Below, piece after piece: positions 2,343 to 53,103 of a stretch of 64,000 bases of DNA. Source of the stretch: a virus. A model generated the notes under the pieces. It saw nothing but the letters and a program-made list of their open reading frames with translations. It ran no database searches and was not told the DNA's origin. Position numbers and translations under genes: made by a program. Numbering within the stretch: the first letter of the stretch is position 1; every line of letters begins with the position of its first letter. The stretch lies in IMG/VR virus record IMGVR_UViG_3300005337_000002. The stretch is one strand, 5' to 3'.

Positions 2343-2624
2343 TTAGTCCTGCTGCGGTATCGGGGGATGGACGAAAAAGCCCGTGGGGCCGGTCGGGCGC
2401 GTCGGAATGCCAATCCGGGCACACAGCCGCGCTTCCTGCCCCGTCACGTCCATGGTGGCACCCTGGAGCAGATTGGCGCCGAGGGGGAGCGCAAAGACGA
2501 GGGGCCGGCCGCAGGTGGCACACACCGCGCGCAGATCGAGCATGCACGCGAGACTCTCCCCGTCTTGCGTGTCGGCGAGGCGATGAATCTGCACCGTGGC
2601 GTCAAAGGTCAGGTGGTCGCACAT
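2343..2624 (-). CDS. Phage-type hypothetical protein with CxxC
   Basis: MCDHLTFDATVQIHRL...AVCATCGRPLVF; AAGGAG RBS upstream. Confidence 0.6.
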   Translation of the reverse strand: MCDHLTFDATVQIHRLADTQDGESLACMLDLRAVCATCGRPLVFALPLGANLLQGATMDVTGQEARLCARIGIPTRPTGPTGFFVHPPIPQQD

Positions 2625-2719
2625 GCGCGGAGGCTCCTTGTGCATGGGGCATGGTCCATGGGACGTACAAAGGTAGCCCAGCGAGGGCGACGACGCAAGG
2701 CACGGGACGCACAAGAGGT

Positions 2720-2941
2720 CTAGTCGCTGTTTTTGCGCAGCACGACCTCACCGGTGTCCAGCACGACGAGTGCCACATGCCCGGCCAGCGCCAGATCGAG
2801 CATCGCCTGTTCGGTGCGAATGCCGTTGGCCCAGGCGAGGACATGCCGGGCATCTTCCTCCGTAAACGGGCTTCCCGCTCTCGCCAGTGCCAAGGTCAGT
2901 TGGATCGCTTCGGTCTTCGTGACCAACTGTGCAGGGACCAT
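2720..2941 (-). CDS. Hypothetical protein
   Basis: MVPAQLVTKTEAIQL...; starts immediately after the stop of 2944..3375. Confidence 0.55.
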   Translation of the reverse strand: MVPAQLVTKTEAIQLTLALARAGSPFTEEDARHVLAWANGIRTEQAMLDLALAGHVALVVLDTGEVVLRKNSD

Positions 2942-2943
2942 CC

Positions 2944-3375
2944 TCACTTCCCTTCTGTCTTCGGTTGTGTTCTTTCCCGCTGCCGCTGGATGGCGGGCAG
3001 CCATTGCGCATAGAGCTGCGCATAGGCCCCCTTGGGCATCTGTCTCCGGAGTCGACGCGACAGATCCCCGAACGACCGTAGCGTCGTATCGGTCCCCAAC
3101 ACCCATCCCATCGGGTACCACCCCCAGGCGAGCGCGACGCCTGCGCGGCACAAGGCATCCTCCAGGCGCGCACAGCGCTTGTGCAGATACCAGTAGTCAC
3201 CGGCGGCCAGGCCCTTCCCCGGCGCCGGTCGCCGGTCAAAGGTGAAGTTGACGGCCTCTACCGTCCGCTGGCCCAGGGTGAAAATGTCTACCGGTGCGCG
3301 ACAACAGCTACAGACCAGGGCCGTCGTCGGTTCCCAGCGCACGTTCATACCGCTCCGTAAGGTCAAGAGTGCCAT
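2944..3375 (-). CDS. Hypothetical protein, possible Zn-binding (CSCC...HKRC)
   Basis: 143-aa ORF with GAGGGAG RBS. Confidence 0.6.
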   Translation of the reverse strand: MALLTLRSGMNVRWEPTTALVCSCCRAPVDIFTLGQRTVEAVNFTFDRRPAPGKGLAAGDYWYLHKRCARLEDALCRAGVALAWGWYPMGWVLGTDTTLRSFGDLSRRLRRQMPKGAYAQLYAQWLPAIQRQRERTQPKTEGK

Positions 3376-3392
3376 AGGTCTCCCTCATGTGT

Positions 3393-3727
3393 AAGACGCG
3401 CGTCTTTTTTATCTCGCGCAAGACGGCTTCACATGCCTATGCGCGCGCGTGAAGAAGTCTTATGCGCGCGCAAGACGGCTTCACACGCGCGCGCATGTGT
3501 GAAGTGATCTACGCGCAGTAGGCGATCCGCAGGGTGTGTCTATACTGTCTAGCTGTACAGTTGAATGTTTAACGTGTCTGACACGAGACAGCACGCGAGC
3601 ACTGTCTATGATTTACAGTTGAGCTAGACACTGTGACACTCAGACATGATAGACACCTCATCCCTGCTCCCCCCTTCTTTTCCTGTCTATGATTTACAGT
3701 TGAGCTAGACACTGTGACACTCAGACA
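3393..3727. repeat. Putative replication origin with direct repeats and palindromes
   Basis: Perfect 45-bp direct repeat (3602-3646, 3683-3727), 19-bp direct repeat CGCGCAAGACGGCTTCACA (3415-3433, 3467-3485), palindrome AAGACGCGCGTCTT (3393-3406); lies downstream of the primase/helicase genes. Confidence 0.7.
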
Positions 3728-3741
3728 GCATAGACGTGGGT

Positions 3742-4263
3742 TTACGCTACTCCTGTCAGAGAAAAGACAACAGTTCTGCCGCGACGAGCACATGTGACAG
3801 TGCCGCTGTTTTCCAACTGGGTAAAGATCGTCTTAATGTCCTTGGCACTTGCGCCAAAGAGATGCCGTTGGATGCTGCGCACAGTGAAACTTTGCTCTTT
3901 CTTGAGTAACGCGAGCATCCGCTCTTCAAGCGTTGCCACCGCTCGTATCGGAATAATGCGGGGCATGCGTTGCCCTTGCCCAAGTGCAGGGACAGCGGGG
4001 GATACGCTTACGGCAGGCCACTGTTCCAAGACTTCTTGGGAAAGCTCAAACCATTCACCCCGTGCGTGAAATCCCGCATAGCGAGATTTTAATACTTGCT
4101 CCATCGTATCCATATCCTTTACCAGTTCTGCATATAAGAGTCGCACAGGGAAAGGCATCCCTGAGCCAAGTTGCTGGATACGGCGCGATACATGCGTCGT
4201 TTTTCCAACCTTGATATAGCATGTACCAACAGCATGCACGATATAGACATAGCCCGCTTGCAT
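3742..4263 (-). CDS. GIY-YIG (T5orf172/MUG113) domain protein with C-terminal winged helix
   Basis: GYVYIVHA...IKVGKTT...RRIQQLGSG...RGEWFEL. Confidence 0.85.
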   Translation of the reverse strand: MQAGYVYIVHAVGTCYIKVGKTTHVSRRIQQLGSGMPFPVRLLYAELVKDMDTMEQVLKSRYAGFHARGEWFELSQEVLEQWPAVSVSPAVPALGQGQRMPRIIPIRAVATLEERMLALLKKEQSFTVRSIQRHLFGASAKDIKTIFTQLENSGTVTCARRGRTVVFSLTGVA

Positions 4264-5933
4264 TAGTCCTCCTCTAGCGTTTCCTCATCAGGGGGCGCAT
4301 CGAGGGGCAACATATAGAGCGCCGTCCTGCCTTTGGGAATCATGATAATGCGCCCGACCGCGACCATCGCGTCGAGCAGATGTTTGAGATCACGGGACAT
4401 ACACCGAAACAGATGCCGCTGAATCTCGCGGGCGGTCATGGCGCCACAACTGCTGAGGAGATTCTCGATCTTCTCTTCCCAGATCTGCTCGCGCGAGAGC
4501 GGCTCACTGGCAGCGGCCAGGGCGAGCAGATGGTGCAGCATCGTCCGCCAGGACTCGGTGATCTGCTGCGCATAGGCCCAGTGGCGCATGGCAATCTGCG
4601 GCGCGTCCTGGAGCGACGCGAGGAGGATGGCAATCCGGAGGGCTTTCGCATGGAAGCGACCATAGCACGCACTGAGATCCGCCTCGACCTGCTTCTCAAT
4701 GATGAGCGTCGTGAGGGCACGGTTATACGTGTTGTAGGCCGCGCGCACCTCTGCGGGGAATCCAAGGACCTGGGGGGCAAAGGCTGGGCGCTGAATCCGC
4801 CACCGGCTTGCCCCTTTATGGGTGGTGTCCGCTGCCGGCACAATGGTACAGGCAGGCTCGCCGAGGCGCAGATGCCAGGCATGCAACGTCCGCACGAGAT
4901 CGCTGGGGAGGTCATCGAGTCCTGCCGGTTGCTCGGCCAGTGAGGGCTGCTCATCCAGGCAGGGTGTGATAAAGGCAAACCGCGGCCAAAACCCGTCATG
5001 CCACCAGGGACTTCCCGGGCGCATGTACGGGGCCAGATCGGTGGCCGTGGCACTACACAAGAGCGCGAGGGCTGGGTCCGTCACGCGTTCGAGCCCGCGC
5101 AAGAGGGTTTCGGTCCCAAAGTCCTCACTGCCGTCATCCAGGACACGCAAGATGCCGTGAAACTCGGCCATGACACTGTCGTGCCGCCGCATTTGGCCGA
5201 GCATGCTGCCCCACTCTTCGTAATACCACCCCCGCTGCCCCGCAAACGCGAGATCGTGCCGGCGCGTTTCCTGCTCAGAGCGGTCCATCCCTCCATAGTC
5301 CTCGTCAACGTAGCCACTCATGCGACGGATGAGGGCCTGGGGCGTAATCCGATCCGGGGTCAAGAAAAACTGACACCCGGCTTGCTTGAGCCCCTTGCGC
5401 GCAATGTGGGCTGTCGTGGTCTTCGTGTAGAGTGTGGACGGGGCCACCAGGGCGAGAAATAACATGGGAAATTCCGGTTTGCCGAGATGGACGCAAATCC
5501 GGCGGGCGGCAATGGTCGAAAGGAGCCACAGGCCGACCGCCTGATGAAACCCGGCTGCGGCCCGCGGCGCCCAGTGGCGCGAGTGGGCACAGTACAACTC
5601 TAGCCAGGGTGCGGCGTCGGCACCAAGCGCCGCATCGAGCCGGGCCTCAGCAGGTAACGCAGGGGTCAGGGGGGGTGCCGCATAGGGGAAGGCCCCGGCA
5701 ATCGTTGCCTCCAGCACCGCCCCGCTCTGGGCCGCCTGTTGCCACCCCGCTCTGAGCACGAAGGTATCCACGCCCTGTTTTTTGGCACTGGCAAGCAGGG
5801 GGCCGAGTCGGTACGGATCATCGAGAAACGGTGCCATGTAGGGCGCAATCGTCTTGTCATGCCAATAATGCGGATCGGCGCCCTGCACGAGCGTGGCATA
5901 AATCTGTTCCTGGTACAGCGTATAGTCAGCCAT
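4263..5933 (-). CDS. DUF3987/YfjI-family replicative helicase-like ATPase
   Basis: Degenerate P-loop LVAPSTLYTKTT, ITPQALI, YYEEWG, DGFWPRF and C-terminal wHTH; follows a primase Zn-finger gene. Confidence 0.75.
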   Translation of the reverse strand: MADYTLYQEQIYATLVQGADPHYWHDKTIAPYMAPFLDDPYRLGPLLASAKKQGVDTFVLRAGWQQAAQSGAVLEATIAGAFPYAAPPLTPALPAEARLDAALGADAAPWLELYCAHSRHWAPRAAAGFHQAVGLWLLSTIAARRICVHLGKPEFPMLFLALVAPSTLYTKTTTAHIARKGLKQAGCQFFLTPDRITPQALIRRMSGYVDEDYGGMDRSEQETRRHDLAFAGQRGWYYEEWGSMLGQMRRHDSVMAEFHGILRVLDDGSEDFGTETLLRGLERVTDPALALLCSATATDLAPYMRPGSPWWHDGFWPRFAFITPCLDEQPSLAEQPAGLDDLPSDLVRTLHAWHLRLGEPACTIVPAADTTHKGASRWRIQRPAFAPQVLGFPAEVRAAYNTYNRALTTLIIEKQVEADLSACYGRFHAKALRIAILLASLQDAPQIAMRHWAYAQQITESWRTMLHHLLALAAASEPLSREQIWEEKIENLLSSCGAMTAREIQRHLFRCMSRDLKHLLDAMVAVGRIIMIPKGRTALYMLPLDAPPDEETLEED

Positions 5934-8077: not shown

Positions 8078-9469
8078 CTACCAGGTGCCCGCTCGTTTCC
8101 CATCGTTCAAGATCAACTCCGTGTAGAGCCAGACGAGGGCGTCCATGCGATTCGGCGAGGCCATGCCGGGGACCCAGGACGTCATCTCGGCTTCGAGGTC
8201 CGTAAAGACGCCGACATGATGAATCCGCTGCTGCTCGTACTCGGTCGCAATCGGTTCGGCGCGGGTCTGCTTCCCCCGACTGGCATGGACGGTTTTGTAA
8301 TGGACGGTCGCGGTCGCCCGCACGCCCTCCCGGTGCATCTCCCGCGCCACAAACTGCACCACGGTGCCAATCCACTCCCCGCCGTTATTCACTTCGGCAA
8401 TGAGGACATCGGCCTCCAACTCATCATAGAGGGCAATAGCCTGGCGCGCACAGGCTGCGGGGGTTCCACGCATCGAGGCATCCCGCAATACATAACCATG
8501 GCCGTTCGCCGCGATCCCACCGGCAATCATGCCCATCTCGTCGGCCGTCGGTTGCGAGGTGGCTGAAGGATCAAGGGCAATGGCCACGCGCCGCAAGGGC
8601 GGGAGAAACGTCCCAGGTCCGACGCGGGTACAATCCAGCATCACATGCGTCCACAGGGCACCCGGCACGTCTTCGGTGTCTTCCGCCAAAATCTCCTGGC
8701 GATGCGCGAGGACTGTCATGTCCCCCGTAATCTCATCGAGCGCGGTCTCGGAAATGTACGGATTGGCATGACTCGTGAAGTGAAAGGCTTCCCATCGTCC
8801 CGTCGTGTCCGCCTGCGCGGCTTTGTACAGTTTGGCCGTATAGCGTTTGTCACGGGCTTTCGACATCGAGGCGGTTTGGATCGAGGGCGGGGTATACACA
8901 AAGATCGCATCCCCATCATTGTCCAGCAACATCGGGGCCCCAACGACGCCCCAGGCATCTTCCGACATGAGCTGGTGTTCATCGAGAATCAGTATGTCAG
9001 CATAATCCCCGCGTAAGGTGTCGGCGTTCCAGGCAGTCTTCGCGCGGATACGCGTTTCGGTCCCGGGTATTTCGATGAGATGGCGCGTCTCATTTTTGAG
9101 GAGATATTTGGCATCAATCGCGGGCGCCAGTGCCCGCTTCACCTCAAACCAGAAACGATCCACCTGTTCCTGCGTGGGGACGGCATAGAGGATGCGTCGT
9201 CCGTCGAGAAATTTCTCGAGGGCAATCCGTGCGACCCCCACCGTTTTGCCCCCGCGTCGTCCTGCCCGAATGACTTTGCGTTTGGCCGACGATTGGATAA
9301 AGCGCGCTTGCTCGGCATGCGGGATGCGTAACAGCGTCCGCACCTGGGCATGCCAGGGTGGTGGGGCATGGGGATCTGTCTGGGCTTGCTGTGCCTTGCG
9401 ATGGGCGACGCGCAACCCCGCCATGCCCATCAGGGTGGGGTCCGCCAAGCGCGGATCAAGGGTCGGCAC
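8078..9469 (-). CDS. terL: Terminase large subunit
   Basis: Walker A AGRRGGKT, Walker B LILDE, FTSHANPY, nuclease IALDPS, AEVNNGGE, SPNRMDALVW. Confidence 0.95.
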   Translation of the reverse strand: MPTLDPRLADPTLMGMAGLRVAHRKAQQAQTDPHAPPPWHAQVRTLLRIPHAEQARFIQSSAKRKVIRAGRRGGKTVGVARIALEKFLDGRRILYAVPTQEQVDRFWFEVKRALAPAIDAKYLLKNETRHLIEIPGTETRIRAKTAWNADTLRGDYADILILDEHQLMSEDAWGVVGAPMLLDNDGDAIFVYTPPSIQTASMSKARDKRYTAKLYKAAQADTTGRWEAFHFTSHANPYISETALDEITGDMTVLAHRQEILAEDTEDVPGALWTHVMLDCTRVGPGTFLPPLRRVAIALDPSATSQPTADEMGMIAGGIAANGHGYVLRDASMRGTPAACARQAIALYDELEADVLIAEVNNGGEWIGTVVQFVAREMHREGVRATATVHYKTVHASRGKQTRAEPIATEYEQQRIHHVGVFTDLEAEMTSWVPGMASPNRMDALVWLYTELILNDGKRAGTW

Positions 9470-32314: not shown

Positions 32315-32802
32315 TGGTTGGCCGTCTTATTGCGCTCAGTCTGCTCAGCCTGTTTCCGCTAGCCTGCACCAGTGTCTTGCAAGGCGAACCCGTCGACCTG
32401 GCTGTGGTCGCCACGCCGACGCCGCCCGCGCCCGCCGTACTCCCTCCGCCCACGCTTGCGCCTGGTCCCACGCCGCCTGCTGGCAGCTTTCGTGCCTGGG
32501 TGCCGCGGGAAGTCACAGCGAATGGCGATGTGATCGACGGACACTATCTCCTTGTCAGTACCGCTCCACCCCCTGCGGAACGCCTCGAACCGCCCGTGCC
32601 AATGCCCCGCATTCCGAAACCCACGCGGGCCAAGCCGAAGCCGCAACCCAAGCCTACCACGCAACCACCGTCCCCCACAGAGTCGATGCCGGGGCCGGTG
32701 CGCCCGGAGGGCCAGCCGCCGCTCCCCTTTGTGTGGGGGGATCGGGCGCAGTTGCCGCCTGGCGTGCTCGTGCCAGTGCCCCATCTTGACGGAGGACGCT
32801 AG
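32314..32802 (+). CDS. traV: TraV-like lipoprotein
   Basis: Lipobox PLAC; FRAWVP...NGDVIDGHYL. Confidence 0.7.
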   Translation: MVGRLIALSLLSLFPLACTSVLQGEPVDLAVVATPTPPAPAVLPPPTLAPGPTPPAGSFRAWVPREVTANGDVIDGHYLLVSTAPPPAERLEPPVPMPRIPKPTRAKPKPQPKPTTQPPSPTESMPGPVRPEGQPPLPFVWGDRAQLPPGVLVPVPHLDGGR

Positions 32803-32806
32803 CCCG

Positions 32807-35386
32807 ATGGTCGGCTTTCTGCATGCAGACCCCTATGCCATGCCGCCCTTTGCGCGGTTGTTACCGCACGGGTTGATCCTCAACCAGGCGGCCGGCATTG
32901 GCCTGCTCTCCACGCCGATGCCCCGCTGGAAACGCCCGAGTCTCGCCCTGGGCTGTGCTTGGGATGTCGTGCCGCGCAATATCGATGTCTGTGATGAGTC
33001 GGTCTGTCTCGACATGGCTCGGCTGCATGAAGGGCTTCTTAAAACATTGCCAGTCGGGGCAGCGCTCCAAGTCCTGATGACCATCCTTCCCGCGACGAGC
33101 ATGCCCGCCTGGGAAGCCCTGCGCCGGGAGTGTCGCACTGACGCCGTGGTGCAAGCGCAGTGTGCGGCCATGCAGCAGGGACTCCCCTATCGCGAGGGCC
33201 CCACAATGGGCGGGCTACGGACGGTGCTTACCACGGTCACGGTGCGGCTGCCGATTGCCCATATCCATCCGGCCATTGCGCCGCTCCTCAAGACGGTGCA
33301 GCGCCTTTCTATGGCGCATCGTCCCTCGCTGGCTGATACGCTCACGTCAGCCTTTGCTGAGACCCTGACGCAGCTTGACGGTCTGCGCCGGGCCAGCGCG
33401 GAAACGCTCCAGGCCGCCGGCCATGCCGTGCACGTGCTGTCTGGCATGGATCTTGGGCAGCGCCTCGCGCTGTTGCTGGATCCCTTTGCCCCCGGCACGC
33501 CCGCGTTGCAGGCGGATGAACCCCTCCGCACGCAGGTCCTCACGCGCCCCATGACACAGATCGCGGGTGGCATCCAGGTTGGTGAGGCTACCGTGGCCCA
33601 GGTTCTGTCACTCCAGCGTGCCCCGGCGCATACGTATCCCGGCATCCTCTGTGCCCCGCGTGTGCCTGCCCAGCAACCCGCCATACCAACGGTCGAACCG
33701 CTTGCCCTCTGGCAGGCGCATCCTGGTCCGTTGACCCTCGCGGTGCAGGTGGCCGTCGTGGATTCCGAGGCTGAGAAAAGTCGCCTCAAGCTCAAGCGCA
33801 TGCTGGCAGGCTTGCATGGGAAGGGGAGCGTCGAGAATGCGGCCCTCAAGAAACAGTTAGACAGTCTTCTTGAAACCTTTTTCTTGACCGGTGGCGAGTT
33901 ACACTGGGGGCGGGTCCATGTTGTCGCGTGGGGCACGCCCGCCATCGTCGCCCGCAGCCTGGAAGAAGTGCAGCGCCGGGGGCGCAAGTTGGGACTGGAA
34001 CTACTCGCCGAGACGGGCGCACTTGGCAGTACCTTGTTGCTCCAAACACTCCCGCTGGGGTTTGACCCGGCCTGGCCCGCCGAGCGGGTCATTCAGCGTG
34101 CGCGCCGCCTCCCTGGTGCCCAACTTGCCCATCTGCTGCCACTCTATGGGAGCTTTCACGGCACCGAGACCCCAGTGGTCGCGTATACGAATCAGCGCGG
34201 CGAGGCGGTCGGGGTGCATGTCTTCGATAGTGCGACGAATCCCCATATGATCTGGACGGGGACGAGTGGCGCAGGCAAAACGTTTGGCGTCGCGCATTTT
34301 GCGAATCAGGTCTTGCCGCTTGGCGGGAGCATGGTCATTCTTGATCCACTGGCAAACTACCGGGAACTCTGTGCGGTCCATGGGGGCACCTATGTCAAGC
34401 TGGACTTCAATCACCCGCTGGCCCTCAATCCCTTTGCTGGGGCCCTCGACAATGCCCATGCCGCCTTTCTCACCGCCTCGCTGGCCGAAATGGCCAGTGG
34501 CGGGATTGAGCGGCTGACTTGGGAAGCCTTTAGCGTGTTAGCCACGGCCGTCAGTCACTTGTGTCTGACCTGGGACCGCCAGCGGGGGGAACCGACACTC
34601 GGGCGCTTTGTCGAGGAGGTGCTCCAGGACGGCGGCTTTAGTCCGAAGGATCGCCATGCCCAGCGACTGGCCCAGCAGATTGCGCGCAAACTGAGTCTCT
34701 ACTACGGCACGGGCCAGTACGCCGGGTTTATCGACGGCCCGAATCAGTTTCATGTCGATCCGAAGCTGACCGTGATTGAGTTGTCCCAACTGAGTAAAAC
34801 CTCCGATCTGCAAGCCGTGCTCTTCTTTGCGCTGTTCCATCTTGTGACGCAGTTCTTTGAAGATCCGGTGCGCTTCTATCAGTGGAAATTTATCGTGGCG
34901 GATGAAACGTGGGCGCTCCTCAAGCATGCCCAGACCGCGGATGTGATTGAGAAGATCATTCGGACCTACCGGAACATCAAAACGAGCGCCATCTTTCTCT
35001 CCCAGCGCGTCGAGGATTTTGACTCCCCGGTGGGGAAGGTGATCTTGGGCCTCGTCGATACGACGCTGTTTCTGCAGCCGCAAGAGGGCGAGCTGCCGAA
35101 GATTCAGCGCCTCTTTCAACTGACGGACGCCGAATGCCAGTTGGTGCGGCAGGTGCGCAAGCATGCCGGCTGGAGTAGTGCCTATCTGCGGCTTGCCAAC
35201 GGGCACGGCGGGATGGTGCGGCTTATCCCGGATCGTTTTCTCCAACTCCAGCAAAGCCAGGACAGTGCGATTGCGCAGCGCCGCACCCAGGCCATTGCCG
35301 AGGCCCGGGGCAATGTGCGCGCGGCGATTGCGGCCATGCTTCAGGAAGAGGCCGCTTCGACGTCTGCTCCCTCAACACTTCTATGA
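32807..35386 (+). CDS. traC: TraC/VirB4 ATPase
   Basis: Walker A GTSGAGKT, ILDP..NY, LNPF, Walker B VADETW, FLSQ. Confidence 0.92.
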   Translation: MVGFLHADPYAMPPFARLLPHGLILNQAAGIGLLSTPMPRWKRPSLALGCAWDVVPRNIDVCDESVCLDMARLHEGLLKTLPVGAALQVLMTILPATSMPAWEALRRECRTDAVVQAQCAAMQQGLPYREGPTMGGLRTVLTTVTVRLPIAHIHPAIAPLLKTVQRLSMAHRPSLADTLTSAFAETLTQLDGLRRASAETLQAAGHAVHVLSGMDLGQRLALLLDPFAPGTPALQADEPLRTQVLTRPMTQIAGGIQVGEATVAQVLSLQRAPAHTYPGILCAPRVPAQQPAIPTVEPLALWQAHPGPLTLAVQVAVVDSEAEKSRLKLKRMLAGLHGKGSVENAALKKQLDSLLETFFLTGGELHWGRVHVVAWGTPAIVARSLEEVQRRGRKLGLELLAETGALGSTLLLQTLPLGFDPAWPAERVIQRARRLPGAQLAHLLPLYGSFHGTETPVVAYTNQRGEAVGVHVFDSATNPHMIWTGTSGAGKTFGVAHFANQVLPLGGSMVILDPLANYRELCAVHGGTYVKLDFNHPLALNPFAGALDNAHAAFLTASLAEMASGGIERLTWEAFSVLATAVSHLCLTWDRQRGEPTLGRFVEEVLQDGGFSPKDRHAQRLAQQIARKLSLYYGTGQYAGFIDGPNQFHVDPKLTVIELSQLSKTSDLQAVLFFALFHLVTQFFEDPVRFYQWKFIVADETWALLKHAQTADVIEKIIRTYRNIKTSAIFLSQRVEDFDSPVGKVILGLVDTTLFLQPQEGELPKIQRLFQLTDAECQLVRQVRKHAGWSSAYLRLANGHGGMVRLIPDRFLQLQQSQDSAIAQRRTQAIAEARGNVRAAIAAMLQEEAASTSAPSTLL

Positions 35387-39873: not shown

Positions 39874-40608
39874 ATGGCCTTTGAGGAAGTAATTTTTGGA
39901 CAGTGCCGACTGATACGCGGGGATTGCTATGTCCTGCTTGCCGACATACAGGCCGATGCACTGATTACCGATCCGCCCTATGGGATGGCCTTCAATTTTC
40001 GGCAGGTAACGTCCCCTGACCTTCGGCGCAAGAGTCACCCCCCCCATGGACGCCATAGCTACAGTGCTGGTCGGGCATGGCAGGACAATATCCACGGCGA
40101 TGCATCCCCGTTCGATCCCACACCCTTCTTGTGGTTTCCACAGATCATTTTATGGGGTGCGCACCATTATAGTGCTGCCTTGCCGTCGAGCCCAAGCTGG
40201 CTCCTCTGGGACAAGCGTGTGGGAACCGCCTCAGATCATCATGGGGATGCGGATATGGCATGGACCAATCTTGGCGGCTGTATTCGCGTCCACCGGCAAC
40301 TCTGGCGAGGGCTCATTCGGGCAGGTGAGGAAAATGGGAGTCGTGACGGCAAGCAGCATCCAGGACAAAAACCGTTAGCCCTTATGCGGTGGTGTGTCGA
40401 AAAAACACGAGGGATAGTCTTTGATCCCTTTGCCGGATCGTTCACCACGGCTCTCGCATGTTTCCAACTGGGACGACCCTGCATTGCTATCGAAATTGAC
40501 CCTTATTATTTTGACATAGGCTGCCGTCGTCTCGAAGCCGCCTACGCCCAGCTAGGGTTGTTTCTTCCGCAACCCATCGTACATCCCACGCAAGCAACCT
40601 TATTCTAA
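39874..40608 (+). CDS. Beta-class N4/N6 DNA methyltransferase
   Basis: ITDPPYG...HPGQKP...VFDPFAGS...IEID. Confidence 0.92.
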   Translation: MAFEEVIFGQCRLIRGDCYVLLADIQADALITDPPYGMAFNFRQVTSPDLRRKSHPPHGRHSYSAGRAWQDNIHGDASPFDPTPFLWFPQIILWGAHHYSAALPSSPSWLLWDKRVGTASDHHGDADMAWTNLGGCIRVHRQLWRGLIRAGEENGSRDGKQHPGQKPLALMRWCVEKTRGIVFDPFAGSFTTALACFQLGRPCIAIEIDPYYFDIGCRRLEAAYAQLGLFLPQPIVHPTQATLF

Positions 40609-49606: not shown

Positions 49607-50353
49607 ACGGCGCTCCTTGTGGGTTGAACAGACAGCGATCTCTCACAGCGACAATGGGCGGGGCACTGATGACACTGCCCACAGCGGACGCCCCACCAGG
49701 CCCGCCAGGGGAGGAGGAAGTGCGGCGTGGGCGGGACCTGCACAGCATCACAGCCACAGGCATCGGTCACAGCCCGCGTCCCGGCATGGGCACAGCAATC
49801 GCAGTAGCGCGTGCGTTCCGGCAGACGGTGGTGCGGCATCAGTGTAGCTCCTCCAGCGTAAACACATCGCCCTCTGCTTCCCACGTGGTACTCGCTGGGG
49901 CCAGCGTCCGCGTCACGAGGTACTCATACAGCGGCGGCATAATATCACGGCGAGTATAGCGTTGCTGGATCACGACCGCCGGGCCATAGCCGTCCTCGTA
50001 CCACACCTGCACCGGCTCGCCCTGGGCATAGCGCCACCGCACGAGGCCCCAGCGGGACAGCCAGCGGCGCAGACGTCCCGGCGTCTCACGGCGCCGCGGG
50101 GGTGGACGCGGTGCGGCCATCAGGGGGGCGTCTGGCGGAGGGGACGCGCCTTCATGCGCCTGCGCCCGGAGGGTGCGGAGCAGGTCGGCCGCAGCGGTGG
50201 CCAGCAGCGCGCGCCAGCCTGGCGGGAGGGCCCGCCCCGCCGGTGCCCGGAGCAGATCCTGGCAATCGCGGGCGAGTTTGTAGGCGCCCTGCCCCACGCG
50301 GTCGGTCGGCTCGAGGTGACAGGCCCAGAGGGGTCCGCGGGCGGGCGGAGGCC

Positions 50354-52465
50354 TCACGCGTCCTCCTTGCTCGGGGGCGCGCCTAGGGGCAGCGCGGAGA
50401 GCTGGCCCGCGGTCGTCCCGTAGCCGGTGTCGGCCAGCGCGGTCAGGCTGTGCCCAAACGGGCCCCCCGCCGTCGTACGATAATGGAGACCGCCGCGCTG
50501 GCCCGTCCCGACGATATCGGCATACGGCGGGGAACTCACCGCACAATCGAGCTGGCCTGGGGGCATCGCGGCGAGTTGGCCCGGGGACGATCCATACCCG
50601 CGCGGGTGGTTGATTTGGGAATTTTTCCCAGTGGTGCCGCCAGACCGGCGCGGGCGAGAGGTGCGCTGTCTGCGGTCGGCAATCGACGTCCTCTCGTCTT
50701 GCCCATGGAAACTCTCGGCATAGGGCGGTGAGCTGATCGTGCACGCACACCCCTGGAGGAGCGGCAACTGTTGCCAGGCGTCCTCGGGCGGCAGGGGCGC
50801 GGGCTTGCGCATGCAATAGACCGTCTCCCATGCAATCGCGAGGTCCGGACGCTTCCGTTCATGCAGGCGGCGGAAGAAGGAGATGCGCTTGGTCTGGAGT
50901 GTCTCGGTCGAGGGCGTCGGGGTATAGCGCCCGGTGGTGTGGAGCGGCGCGCAGAGACTGTCGCCCTCAGCGTCGGTCCAGTGCATATCCGCGCCGTCCT
51001 GGGAAAAGAGCGTCTCCTGCGTGCCGTACTCCTCGGTCAGCACGGCGTGGTGCTCGTGGAGGGTCTCGAACCCGACACTTTCAGCGGCGAGGCGCCAGTC
51101 GCCAGGAAAATCGACGATGGTCCCGTCACGACAATAGCCTTTGACCACCCACAGCGCGTGGCCGCCTGGCCGCACGACGGCAAAGGTTTGCCGCAGAATC
51201 TGCACCGCTGCAGACCAAAAGGTGGTCGGCGCTGCGGTGCCGAGCTGCCCCGGACTGGCCCCATATGTCTGTGCCGCTATGCCCCCGACGCCATGCGTGC
51301 CAAACGCGGCTTGCTGCGTGCGGTCGCGGCGGCCCCCGTCCACCTTCGACCAGTCAATCGCATCCCGCGTGTCATTGAGACTGGCCGCGTAGGGAGGTGA
51401 GGACACGAGGCAGTCGGCCACCGGCATGGTTCCTAACTGCCCCGGCGAGTCGGGATAGTGATAATCCCCTTTGTTGCGGTCAGCACTTTGGCCAGTGGCG
51501 CGTGTCCCAGCACCAGCGCCGAGCTTTGTTGGCTTGGTATCCGTATTAGAAAAGGGGGGAGATGAGATCAGGCAGTCGGCCACTTCGCCCGTCGCCATGT
51601 TCCCGAGTTGCGCCGGATCACTGCCGTAGTACGGGTCCACGATGCCCTTGTCGTGCATGATGCCACGGTGACTATCCTTGTCGCGCTTGGCGTGGTCGGC
51701 GTAGGTATGTTCTTTGCCAAGGCCGTGGGCATAGGGCGGACTACTCACGCAGGCCGCAACCTGCCCGGCCAGCACCTTCTCCAACTCCCGACTATCGCCT
51801 CGCAGCAGCACGGCGCCCGTGTGGCCCTGCGCCGCCCAGGTCTCCAGATTGCCCTGGTAGTGATGCGGCCCACTCGACGGAATCGTGCCGCTGTTGTGGG
51901 CATAGCTCGTCGTCGTCACGGCAAAGAGCGTCGCCACCGGGCCATGGGGCGGTGGACGCACGCCATCCTGCCGATCTGGCAACGGCAGCGGCAGAAACGG
52001 CACGGTCCGCTGCCGCACGCGCTGGCCCGGTTTGGGCCGCGTCCGAAAGGTGCGGCGCCGGGCCACGGGCAGGCCGGTGCGCTGGGACGCCTGGGTCAGA
52101 CAGCGCGGACACCAGTAGTGACCGTCTGCATAGCGCAGGCGTGTCCAGCGGCCATAGCAGCGCACCCAGTCCGCCTTGGTGATGCCGGTACAGTCACAGC
52201 CGGTGCCGAGATCATTGAAGGGTTGCTCCAACTCCACGCCGATCCAGCGACAGCCGAGGGCCATGGCATCCCAGGCGCCGAGGCCGACCCCCCCGAAGGG
52301 GTCAACAATGGTCGATCCCGGGGCAAGCCAGCCTTCGGCCGCCGCATGCGCATAGATGTGCTGAATGAGCGCCCGTGAGAATTTCGCCGGGTGCCCGAAG
52401 GCTTCTGGGACAATGTGCTGCCAACTGCTGCTGTACAACGATCGCCACACCGTTACGTCAACCAT
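50354..52465 (-). CDS. DNA methyltransferase (N4C-type SPPY) with five catalytic-motif cassettes
   Basis: HPAKF, VDPFGGVG, GVELE, GDSR. SSPP(Y/F) at 51731-51745, 51551-51565, 51389-51403, 50720-50734 and 50522-50536, each followed by Y(G/P)xxx(G/A)QL. Confidence 0.88.
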   Translation of the reverse strand: MVDVTVWRSLYSSSWQHIVPEAFGHPAKFSRALIQHIYAHAAAEGWLAPGSTIVDPFGGVGLGAWDAMALGCRWIGVELEQPFNDLGTGCDCTGITKADWVRCYGRWTRLRYADGHYWCPRCLTQASQRTGLPVARRRTFRTRPKPGQRVRQRTVPFLPLPLPDRQDGVRPPPHGPVATLFAVTTTSYAHNSGTIPSSGPHHYQGNLETWAAQGHTGAVLLRGDSRELEKVLAGQVAACVSSPPYAHGLGKEHTYADHAKRDKDSHRGIMHDKGIVDPYYGSDPAQLGNMATGEVADCLISSPPFSNTDTKPTKLGAGAGTRATGQSADRNKGDYHYPDSPGQLGTMPVADCLVSSPPYAASLNDTRDAIDWSKVDGGRRDRTQQAAFGTHGVGGIAAQTYGASPGQLGTAAPTTFWSAAVQILRQTFAVVRPGGHALWVVKGYCRDGTIVDFPGDWRLAAESVGFETLHEHHAVLTEEYGTQETLFSQDGADMHWTDAEGDSLCAPLHTTGRYTPTPSTETLQTKRISFFRRLHERKRPDLAIAWETVYCMRKPAPLPPEDAWQQLPLLQGCACTISSPPYAESFHGQDERTSIADRRQRTSRPRRSGGTTGKNSQINHPRGYGSSPGQLAAMPPGQLDCAVSSPPYADIVGTGQRGGLHYRTTAGGPFGHSLTALADTGYGTTAGQLSALPLGAPPSKEDA

Positions 52466-53103
52466 GAGGACGCCTCCATGCGTGGCAGACGACGTGCACC
52501 ACGAGGAGCCGGACGTTTGCCGCGACAGTTATGTCCGACCAGAAAGCGGCGCGGGCGCCCTTTTTTATCGTACTGTGCCAAAGGAGTCGCGCAACCACAT
52601 GCACACAGGATGAGAGGATTCTCTGCTCCCACGCGACGCGTGTTGGGATTGTTGCCATGCTGTTGTGCATGGAGGGCTCTATCGACCACTTCTAAATTGT
52701 CAGGGCTATTATTCTGTTTGTTCTGATCTTTATGATGCACACATTCATTGCGACGCAGCGGCCGTCCGAGCATCGCTGTAACGACAACAATATGTTCCAA
52801 GACCCAGCCATTCGATGTGGCATGAGGATGTGATGGGCATTTAATCCGTACATAGCCATATGCGGTGATATGGCGCGTGCTGCTTTGCGCTCGTTGACAT
52901 GTTTTTGAGCAGAAAAAGCGGCGGGATGCCCGTCGTCGCACGCGTGTACCGCACGTGCGACAGGGAAATTCTTCCACATACGATTCTTGAACAAAACGCC
53001 CCGTCGCATCTCTTGTACGCCCTGTCCATACATCGACCGCAGGTCCTCTGCCCACCCCATGATTTTCCTTCTTGGGTTCTTGCATATGAGCGAAATTCTC
53101 CAT
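52453..53103 (-). CDS. HNH endonuclease, related to 16243..16977
   Basis: GYV...HP.A...GWVLEH...VHHKDQNKQNN..DNL; CACGC...YD..GRPR. Confidence 0.88.
   Translation of the reverse strand: MENFAHMQEPKKENHGVGRGPAVDVWTGRTRDATGRFVQESYVEEFPCRTCGTRVRRRASRRFFCSKTCQRAQSSTRHITAYGYVRIKCPSHPHATSNGWVLEHIVVVTAMLGRPLRRNECVHHKDQNKQNNSPDNLEVVDRALHAQQHGNNPNTRRVGAENPLILCACGCATPLAQYDKKGRPRRFLVGHNCRGKRPAPRGARRLPRMEASSWLT

Follow-up and report, generated by a model that had tools for sequence, protein, structure and literature searches.

In textbook descriptions, an amino-methyltransferase has a single active site and one motif IV, and to our knowledge multi-specificity is known only for C5 enzymes, in which it is achieved through repeated recognition domains. 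The C5 arrangement is represented by the multispecific methyltransferases of Bacillus phages (SPR, phi3T, and rho11s; Trautner and co-workers, cited in PMC7544214), which combine one core with several tandem recognition modules. Here, we analyze a gene from a stretch of 64,000 nucleotides of viral DNA (IMG/VR virus record IMGVR_UViG_3300005337_000002; the whole stretch is referred to below as the window). Its product, P0001, is a putative DNA amino-methyltransferase with a single S-adenosylmethionine (SAM)-binding region and five cassettes, each of which contains a motif IV. The protein belongs to a multi-cassette family in which cassettes are mixed and matched, perhaps so that a single protein can mark several DNA targets. 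Literature searches for repeated SPPY or motif IV cassettes returned no description of this layout.

The open 703-residue frame contains motif I only once (DPFGGVG, aa 55–61). The SPP[YF] motif starts at aa 242, 302, 356, 579, and 645, and Y[GP]xxx[GA]QL at aa 280, 337, 401, 624, and 682, the spacer between the two being 31–41 residues in all five cassettes. From the composition of P0001, 0.018 SPP[YF] and 0.003 loop motifs are expected by chance, and the Poisson probabilities of five or more are 1.5e-11 and 3e-15, respectively, on which grounds a chance origin of the five motif pairs is rejected. Three cassettes lie between motif III (GDSR, aa 223) and a core helix (TFWSAA, aa 415), and the other two are C-terminal to the last core strand, behind a linker of ~20 residues. 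The layout put forward in the sequence-only reading of the window, namely one SAM-binding region with five SPP(Y/F) plus Y(G/P)xxx(G/A)QL units, three inside the core and two after it, is borne out by these positions, as is the Cys-rich insert that it placed behind motif II, which has the form CxC...CxxC (Cys 90, 92, 119, and 122) and is confidently modeled. One detail of that description needs amendment, in that the units were said to start with C-x-x-SSPP(Y/F), from which cassette 1 departs with C-x-SSPPY. The enclosed loops are, as described, mutually unrelated within P0001, but four of the five belong to types found in other relatives, and the fifth is found in one homologue only, P0002.

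The family to which P0001 belongs is large. A word-indexed search returned 443 near-length and 600 shorter relatives, and an exhaustive phmmer search of 1.84 billion representatives gave 2,179 matches with E ≤ 1e-3, 813 of them at E ≤ 1e-30. At least 106 IMG/VR contigs encode a member. All of the top 120 matches have 2–10 SPP(Y/F/W/H) motifs, and the number of cassettes per protein, detected by motif-based rules, is 1–12 in the sampled members. Single-cassette members of 270–300 residues exist, and the median length grows by ~58 residues per added cassette, the tandem period in the family being 58 residues and the SPPY-to-YG distance 37. The general architecture can be written as I-(cassette)n-core-(cassette)m, with n up to 12 and m of 0–3 in the sampled complete proteins; a C-terminal array is present in 43 of the 277 complete proteins and absent from the remaining 234. 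The comparison of cassette number and order in homologues, which had been suggested from the sequence alone, has thus been made, and it gives 1–12 copies with loop types at any position. No relative was found by tblastn in 50,697 deposited phage genome records, either with P0001 or with a typical two-cassette member as the query. A scan of species-representative prokaryote genomes with one peptide pattern gave only about six full-length relatives, all on contigs of metagenome-assembled genomes and with no cultured handle, and an exact-peptide search of IMG/VR for close relatives returned four distant ones only.

A hidden Markov model of the conserved block (consensus YGSTPGQLGAMPEGDVDAVVSSPPYAE) detects 845 cassettes, 828 of which keep SPP followed by an aromatic residue. 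With a looser detection in 337 proteins, 1,126 of the 1,177 cassettes are intact and 51 degenerate, such that SPP(Y/F/W/H) is kept in about 96–98% of the family cassettes. The extra cassettes, on the conservation of which the sequence-only reading depends, are accordingly conserved. At residues that are identical between the P0001 cassettes, the codons match in 40–42% of the cases, as codon usage predicts, and the Ser codons of SSPPY are of both the AGY and the TCN kind. In 74 viral genes, the codon match between cassettes is 37.5%, compared to an expected 33.9%. Because the synonymous sites are saturated while the motifs are intact, we attribute the conservation of the motifs to purifying selection at the protein level. 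Duplication in tandem or gene conversion, if recent, is rejected as the source, since the codon identity is close to the codon-usage expectation and the loops are less alike within than between proteins.

The loops were typed by local alignment of 623 sequences against a shuffled null (99.99th percentile, 44). At least 53 types have three or more members each, although the clustering depends on the score thresholds. Loops are similar in 0.25% of the pairs within a protein and in 1.29% of those between proteins, a fivefold difference, and a type is repeated within one protein in only 6 of 426 incidences. The relative position of the loop types in the array spans 0 to 1, i.e., from first to last, and 18 types are found both inside and after the core. 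Pairs of proteins with 90–100% identical core segments often share no loop type at all. As regards P0001 itself, the type of loop 1 is present in 22 relatives (18 internal and 4 C-terminal, at ~85–90% identity), that of loop 2 in 14 (12 internal, 2 C-terminal), that of loop 3 also in 14, and that of loop 4 in three, two of which have it in their internal arrays (P0022 and P0222). The loops are polar in character, with many Arg, Lys, His, and Gly residues. They are conserved at 80–90% identity, and the relatives bearing them are overall ~35–45% identical to P0001. These alignments show the loops to be a library of more than 50 types, shuffled by recombination between phage genes.

The above data also bear on a neutral expansion, in which products of slippage or unequal crossover would be tolerated in a surface loop and only one cassette would be functional. 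The wide variation in copy number is in line with such a process, and so are partial duplications of loop ends, as in P0175. An origin of this kind is nevertheless hard to reconcile with the rarity of similar loops within a protein, with motifs that stay intact at saturated synonymous sites, and with loop types that are so much better conserved than the proteins carrying them. We consider it very improbable.

A natural variant of the P0001 gene provides a direct view of the exchange. P0002, encoded at 2401–4581 of a 5-kb ENA contig (k141_2233465, here L002), is 77% identical to P0001 overall, and the two genes share 85–100% of their nucleotides over residues 25–230 and 400–685. The stretch between these halves, which is delimited by the first SSPPY and the last internal YG..PGQLG, is unrelated (Table 1), with the joints located in those conserved motifs. 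Because the internal block has only ~40% nucleotide identity between halves that are 85–100% identical, it must have been exchanged. P0002 has in addition a sixth cassette, and the identity breaks off immediately after the GQLSA of cassette 5. The flanks of the two genes are also only ~40% identical on both sides, and because a near-identical gene is found in unrelated flanks, we conclude that the gene moves horizontally as a single-gene unit.

The sequence-only reading had proposed either interchangeable modules or an in-genome cassette reservoir for switching specificity. Interchangeability is supported at the level of the sequences, in that loop types recur at any position, are rarely found twice in a protein, and can be replaced as a whole internal block in a near-identical gene. 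The reservoir is not supported. The repeats between the P0001 cassettes are only 25–31 nucleotides long, with 72–81% identity, all copies are in frame in one open reading frame (ORF), and the 141.6-kb phage genome contains no match to RVT_1, resolvase, or phage integrase and no serine or tyrosine recombinase. A diversity-generating retroelement or a shufflon was rejected on the same grounds. The cassette exchange is one between genomes over evolutionary time and not a switch.

As to the enzyme class, the only Pfam match in P0001 is to PF01555 (N6_N4_Mtase; aa 15–81, profile positions 152–213 of 221, E 1.4e-5), and precomputed PF01555 matches are present on most relatives. A PDB sequence search gives marginal matches only (E 0.14–0.24), in which the HPAKF...DPFGGVG...VELE segment aligns with the motif I region of CcrM (6pbd) and TTHA0409 (2zie), and the end of cassette 3 (YG..PGQLG), together with helix D and the PGG strand, aligns with residues 55–99 of TTHA0409. 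The AlphaFold2 model, built from 121 homologues, has a confident Rossmann core at residues 1–160, 190–235, 400–490, and 520–565. With a predicted local distance difference test (pLDDT) score above 85 in the core and the DPFGGVG motif, P0001 has the features of a class I (Rossmann-like) SAM-dependent methyltransferase. A Foldseek search with the whole 703-residue model resulted only in weak, meaningless matches because of the disordered stretches, and VIA-align was instead run on the trimmed model, where Z scores of 12–16 to many class I methyltransferases are obtained, with 150–180 residues aligned.

The motifs are in the order I-II-III-IV-V..VIII, with motif I at aa 55 and the first motif IV at aa 242, which differs from the IV...TRD...I order of class beta (TRD, target-recognition domain). 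Because motif I precedes motif IV, P0001 would be a circular permutation of the beta order. Permutations of this type are tolerated by the methyltransferase fold (PMC7544214). The order agrees with that of class gamma (M.TaqI type, X-I-II-III-IV..VIII with a C-terminal TRD), but the minimal members of ~270 residues are too short for a separate recognition domain. M.TaqI-type chains are not among the VIA matches listed. The amino-methyltransferase motif IV, (D/N/S)PP(Y/F/W), is found five times in P0001, and none of these is placed confidently as β4 in its model. The best reading of the motifs and alignments is that P0001 is a phage DNA amino-methyltransferase, circularly permuted and beta-class-like. 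Its product is, by analogy, probably N4-methylcytosine or N6-methyladenine, the SPPY form suggesting N4-cytosine by comparison with beta-class enzymes.

On this basis, we tentatively favor an explanation in which P0001 is a permuted, beta-class-like DNA amino-methyltransferase and its cassettes serve as exchangeable modules for both catalysis and recognition. The chain would begin with the SAM-binding half, followed by the five cassettes, inserted between motif III and helix D and past the last core strand. Each cassette would provide a buried-type β4 strand, the SSPP(Y/F) of motif IV, a polar loop of 31–41 residues and of distinct type, and the YGxxPGQLG element, which in ordinary relatives leads into helix D. 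The loops would act as target-recognition elements, and one cassette at a time would complete the single active site beside SAM, with the seat most plausibly being fixed as each molecule folds, in a manner resembling alternate-frame folding. A population of the protein could then methylate several DNA motifs and so shield the phage against several restriction systems. The step by which each cassette would itself complete the active site, being chosen at folding, is favored because it best explains the retention of a buried-type strand and of the catalytic tetrapeptide in every copy, the C-terminal ones included; we give this part of the proposal limited credence. Its fullest form, a natural alternate-frame-folding enzyme in which any of the five cassettes supplies β4, motif IV, and the recognition loop, yielding a mixture of conformers with different DNA specificities that is reprogrammed by loop swaps from the more than 50 types, we regard as doubtful.

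A number of observations weigh against this explanation, with respect to both the substrate and the seat. Regarding the former, the PF01555 score of P0001 (25.6 bits) is below the cut-off of 26.7, DNA as the substrate is suggested by family resemblance, and the closest solved folds are those of tRNA enzymes. The best VIA matches of the trimmed core are Trm14 (3tlj, Z 15.9), Trm11 (5e72, Z 15.3), and TrmN (3tma, Z 14.9), over ~165 residues, and PrmC-RF1 is matched with Z 12.3. Relatives are moreover labeled "tRNA G10 N-methylase Trm11" in several sources. The protein might accordingly not be a DNA enzyme but methylate RNA (m2G type, as in Trm11, Trm14, and TrmN) or protein glutamine (as in PrmC), or be a non-catalytic binder, with the cassettes recognizing several such substrates. 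We consider this unlikely, because P0001 contains no THUMP domain and no other RNA-binding or Pfam domain besides the PF01555 fragment, both of its halves resemble TTHA0409 and CcrM in sequence, and the rapid turnover of the loops fits a phage arms race. The idea of a glutamine methyltransferase with PGQLG as a GGQ-like substrate was dropped, as the same YG..PGQLG element is a structural element of single-motif DNA methylases.

Regarding the seat, we know of no natural enzyme that exchanges a central β strand. The AlphaFold2 model of P0001 has pLDDT values of 30–55 for all five cassettes and no strand at the β4 site. In the model of the two-cassette relative P0147 (49 sequences of the same architecture), the first strand is seated with pLDDT above 90, whereas the second cassette scores below 50. 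The modeling of which strand fills the fold, suggested in the sequence-only reading, has thus been carried out and does not decide on the seat; the models neither support nor localize an alternative seating. Engineered alternate-strand systems are a documented weakness of AlphaFold, which mishandles the choice of the seated copy (PMC12344692).

The main rival explanation, ahead of trans complementation, a non-DNA substrate, and neutral expansion, is that the seat is fixed. Only one cassette, either the first, next to helix C, or the last internal one, next to helix D, would form β4 and the catalytic loop, and the others would be flexible DNA-binding arms that tune or widen recognition or processivity, or a separate repeat domain. 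There would be one catalytic geometry and possibly one target. The P0147 model and the lack of a natural precedent for strand exchange speak for such an arrangement, and the polar, Arg/Lys/His/Gly-rich loops are what would be expected of DNA-contacting arms. However, it leaves unexplained why S-P-P-aromatic and the buried-type hydrophobic strand are kept in about 96–98% of the cassettes at saturated synonymous sites and why the same loop types are found in both the internal array and the C-terminal tail. The predicted seat also differs between the two models, none in P0001 and the first in P0147. Nor does a fixed seat account for the spread of degenerate motifs, which are not depleted at either end of the array relative to its middle: in the internal arrays there are 11, 19, and 8 cases at the first, middle, and last positions (~4.5%, 4.8%, and 3.3%), i.e., no first or last position is protected from motif decay, although the counts are small. 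This argument is itself weak, since the rate in single-cassette members (1 of 34) is indistinguishable from 4%. We consider a fixed seat to be a possibility that deserves to be taken seriously, though not one that we would expect.

The strands preceding SPPY also bear on the modularity of the cassettes. They track the resident protein and not the loop, the identity being 0.41 among strands of one protein, compared to 0.28 for strands that precede the same loop type in other proteins and a background of 0.27, and the result is replicated on 71 independent viral genes (0.364 vs 0.267). When internal and C-terminal strands of one protein are compared in the C-array subfamily, the difference is marginal (0.297 vs 0.269, ~1.9 standard deviations, with relatedness among the sequences inflating permutation z-scores) and is given no weight here. 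The within-protein similarity could also stem from an ancient intragenic duplication, which further limits its weight for the favored explanation. The Cys residue of the strand is a trait of the C-array subfamily, being found in 67% of the C-array strands, 44% of the internal strands of the same proteins, and 17% elsewhere. Both the degenerate-motif and the strand-similarity arguments are suggestive only.

That all strands within a protein share protein-specific residues would also be consistent with complementation in trans, in which a dimer or oligomer forms and surplus cassettes, above all those at the C-terminus, are inserted into or packed on the core of a neighbor by domain swapping. Class-beta enzymes are believed to require dimerization for activity (PMC7544214), and the C-terminal cassettes are attached through the linker of ~20 residues behind the last core strand. 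However, with one core per chain most cassettes would still be idle, and most of the complete members (234 of 277) have no C-terminal array. This alternative appears improbable to us.

Two relatives, P0171 and P0125, have a degenerate sole internal cassette (SPPS and SPSY, respectively) and intact SPPY cassettes after the core. If they are complete and active, a C-terminal cassette must therefore supply catalysis. Both are possibly truncated, P0171 being from a 1.4-kb contig and P0125 being without the N-terminal half.

The coordinates of the features discussed above are collected in Table 1.

Table 1. Features of the P0001 gene and its upstream neighbor, in window coordinates.
Feature	Position	Strand	Basis or remark
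Whole gene, P0001, multi-cassette amino-methyltransferase (putative)	50354..52465	-	Open frame, 703 aa; class I methyltransferase fold
SAM-binding half, aa 1–83: HPAKF, motif I DPFGGVG (52283–52303), motif II VELE	52217..52465	-	PF01555 match, CcrM/TTHA0409 alignment, pLDDT >90
Cys-rich CxC...CxxC zinc-ribbon-like insert after motif II, aa 84–205	51851..52216	-	Cys 90, 92, 119, 122; strands/helices confident at aa 84–160
β3, motif III (GDSR), and helix C, leading into the cassette array, aa 206–235	51761..51850	-	Strand 218–222, helix 225–234, pLDDT >90
Cassette 1, aa 234–288: strand, SSPPY, GLGKEHTY loop type, YGSDPAQLG	51602..51766	-	Motif positions
Cassette 2, aa 294–345: strand, SSPPF, DTKPT..RNKGDY loop type, YPDSPGQLG	51431..51586	-	Motif positions
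Cassette 3, aa 348–409: strand, SSPPY, GIDWSK loop type, YGASPGQLG, continuing into core helix D	51239..51424	-	Motif positions, loop recurrence
Second half of the Rossmann core, aa 410–556: helix D, β5, β6, β7, SFFRRL	50798..51238	-	pLDDT 85–96 except loop aa 490–516
Cassette 4, after the core, aa 571–632: strand, SSPPY, loop, YGSSPGQLA	50570..50755	-	85–100% nucleotide-identical in L002
Cassette 5, after the core, aa 637–690: strand, SSPPY, loop, YGTTAGQLS	50396..50557	-	Loop otherwise only in P0002
Block swapped in P0002, aa ~235–398	51272..51763	-	~40% nucleotide identity (unrelated)
Adjacent upstream HNH_3 endonuclease gene, with a 13-nucleotide overlap at the start of the methyltransferase gene	52453..53103	-	Pfam HNH_3 E 3.6e-9; PHROG HNH endonuclease

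The N-terminus of P0001 agrees with the family consensus W..Y...W..I.P.AF.HPAKFS, the GDSR of motif III is almost invariant across the family, and W417 is invariant. The Cys-rich insert, where CxC...(W)CPxC is followed by a conserved PHHY.GN, is present in 38 of 218 relatives (~17% of the sample) and could be an extra DNA-binding element. Long ORFs overlap the methyltransferase gene on other frames, namely 49839–50831 (-) and several (+) ORFs in 50771–52378, with lengths of 330, 209, and 256 residues. They are most likely open-frame artifacts of DNA with 68% G+C and not genes.

The IMG/VR virus record that carries the gene is complete, measures 141.6 kb, and has direct terminal repeats; the window represents its reverse strand. 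The genome is of the lytic type and contains terminase, primase, and HNH genes. There is no match to PF00145 (C5 methyltransferase) in P0001 or anywhere in the phage genome. A second, ordinary class-beta methyltransferase of 244 residues is encoded at 39874–40608 (+). Its only DPPY is N-terminal and its motif I, HPGQKP...FDPFAGS, is C-terminal, and it matches PF01555 with E 2.5e-16. Because this DPPY enzyme is also encoded, the phage has one canonical and one multi-cassette methyltransferase. The clear large terminase is at 8078–9469 (-), and a 944-residue ORF at 32552–35386 (+) has a faint terminase-like PHROG match (E 1.5e-8 over ~50 residues). Most of the large ORFs at 37–46 kb of the window are without a PHROG match.

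The HNH_3 gene directly upstream of the P0001 gene is probably a mobile, homing-type gene. It is not present upstream of the near-identical P0002 gene in L002, and a close homologue of it (E 5e-44) is located upstream of a family member in another contig (L115, ~1845–2500). In contig L070 (3296–3994), an HNH ORF is found in another frame within an insertion of ~300 residues after motif II of the methyltransferase gene, and P0011 itself includes an HNH_3 domain, fused in frame at a site between motif III and the cassettes. The association looks like the invasion of a preferred site by homing endonucleases, possibly with an intron.

The present analysis describes a large family, so far seen only in uncultivated viruses, that iterates a catalytic strand with a variable loop and keeps all copies under selection, the loops being shuffled faster than the core diverges. 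The combination of cassettes may broaden the protection against restriction. If the cassettes set specificity, the family would represent a compact and evolvable anti-restriction device, and also a natural dictionary from loops to DNA motifs for methyltransferase engineering. Should the cassettes seat alternately, the family would provide the first example from nature of an enzyme core with mutually exclusive strand use. What P0001 contributes is cassettes past the core and a natural block-swap variant, which make the question directly testable.

Compared to known systems, the tRNA enzymes Trm14, Trm11, and TrmN (3tlj, 5e72, and 3tma) have the order I...IV in common with P0001 and belong to the exocyclic-amine methyltransferases with (D/N)PPY. 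They differ in having a THUMP domain and a single motif IV and in being cellular tRNA enzymes, and their identity to P0001 is 15–22%. Five β4-type strands for one core, two of them C-terminal, amount to extra copies of a core strand, but no natural enzyme of the alternate-frame-folding kind is known to us. The engineered alternate-frame-folding proteins (green fluorescent protein systems, PMC12344692) likewise have extra copies of a fold segment elsewhere in the chain and one slot to receive them, the difference being that they were designed in the laboratory, contain two copies, and are switched by a ligand.

The class-beta PF01555 enzymes (TTHA0409 2zie, CcrM 6pbd, and M.PvuII) have in common with P0001 the HPxK(F/P)...DPFxGxG segment, an SPPY-type motif IV followed by Y..PGQLG, and the helix leading to the PGG strand, as well as the phage or orphan context. 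In contrast to the IV-then-I order of these enzymes, P0001 has I then IV and no separate target-recognition domain, and its motif IV and loop are present five times (1–12 in the family), with an SPPY-to-YG spacer of 31–41 residues instead of ~5. In its way of working, the P0001 family would come closest to the multispecific C5 enzymes of Bacillus phages, to which P0001 does not itself belong. The C5 enzymes resemble the P0001 family in their tandem modules of ~40–60 residues, each of a different type and exchangeable, and in the phage anti-restriction setting, and the one-of-each-type rule and the shuffling observed here match them at the sequence level. The C5 enzymes, however, have PCQ/ENV motifs and a single catalytic loop, and their repeated modules serve recognition only, whereas each module of P0001 includes motif IV and a β strand, and some of the modules are located past the core.

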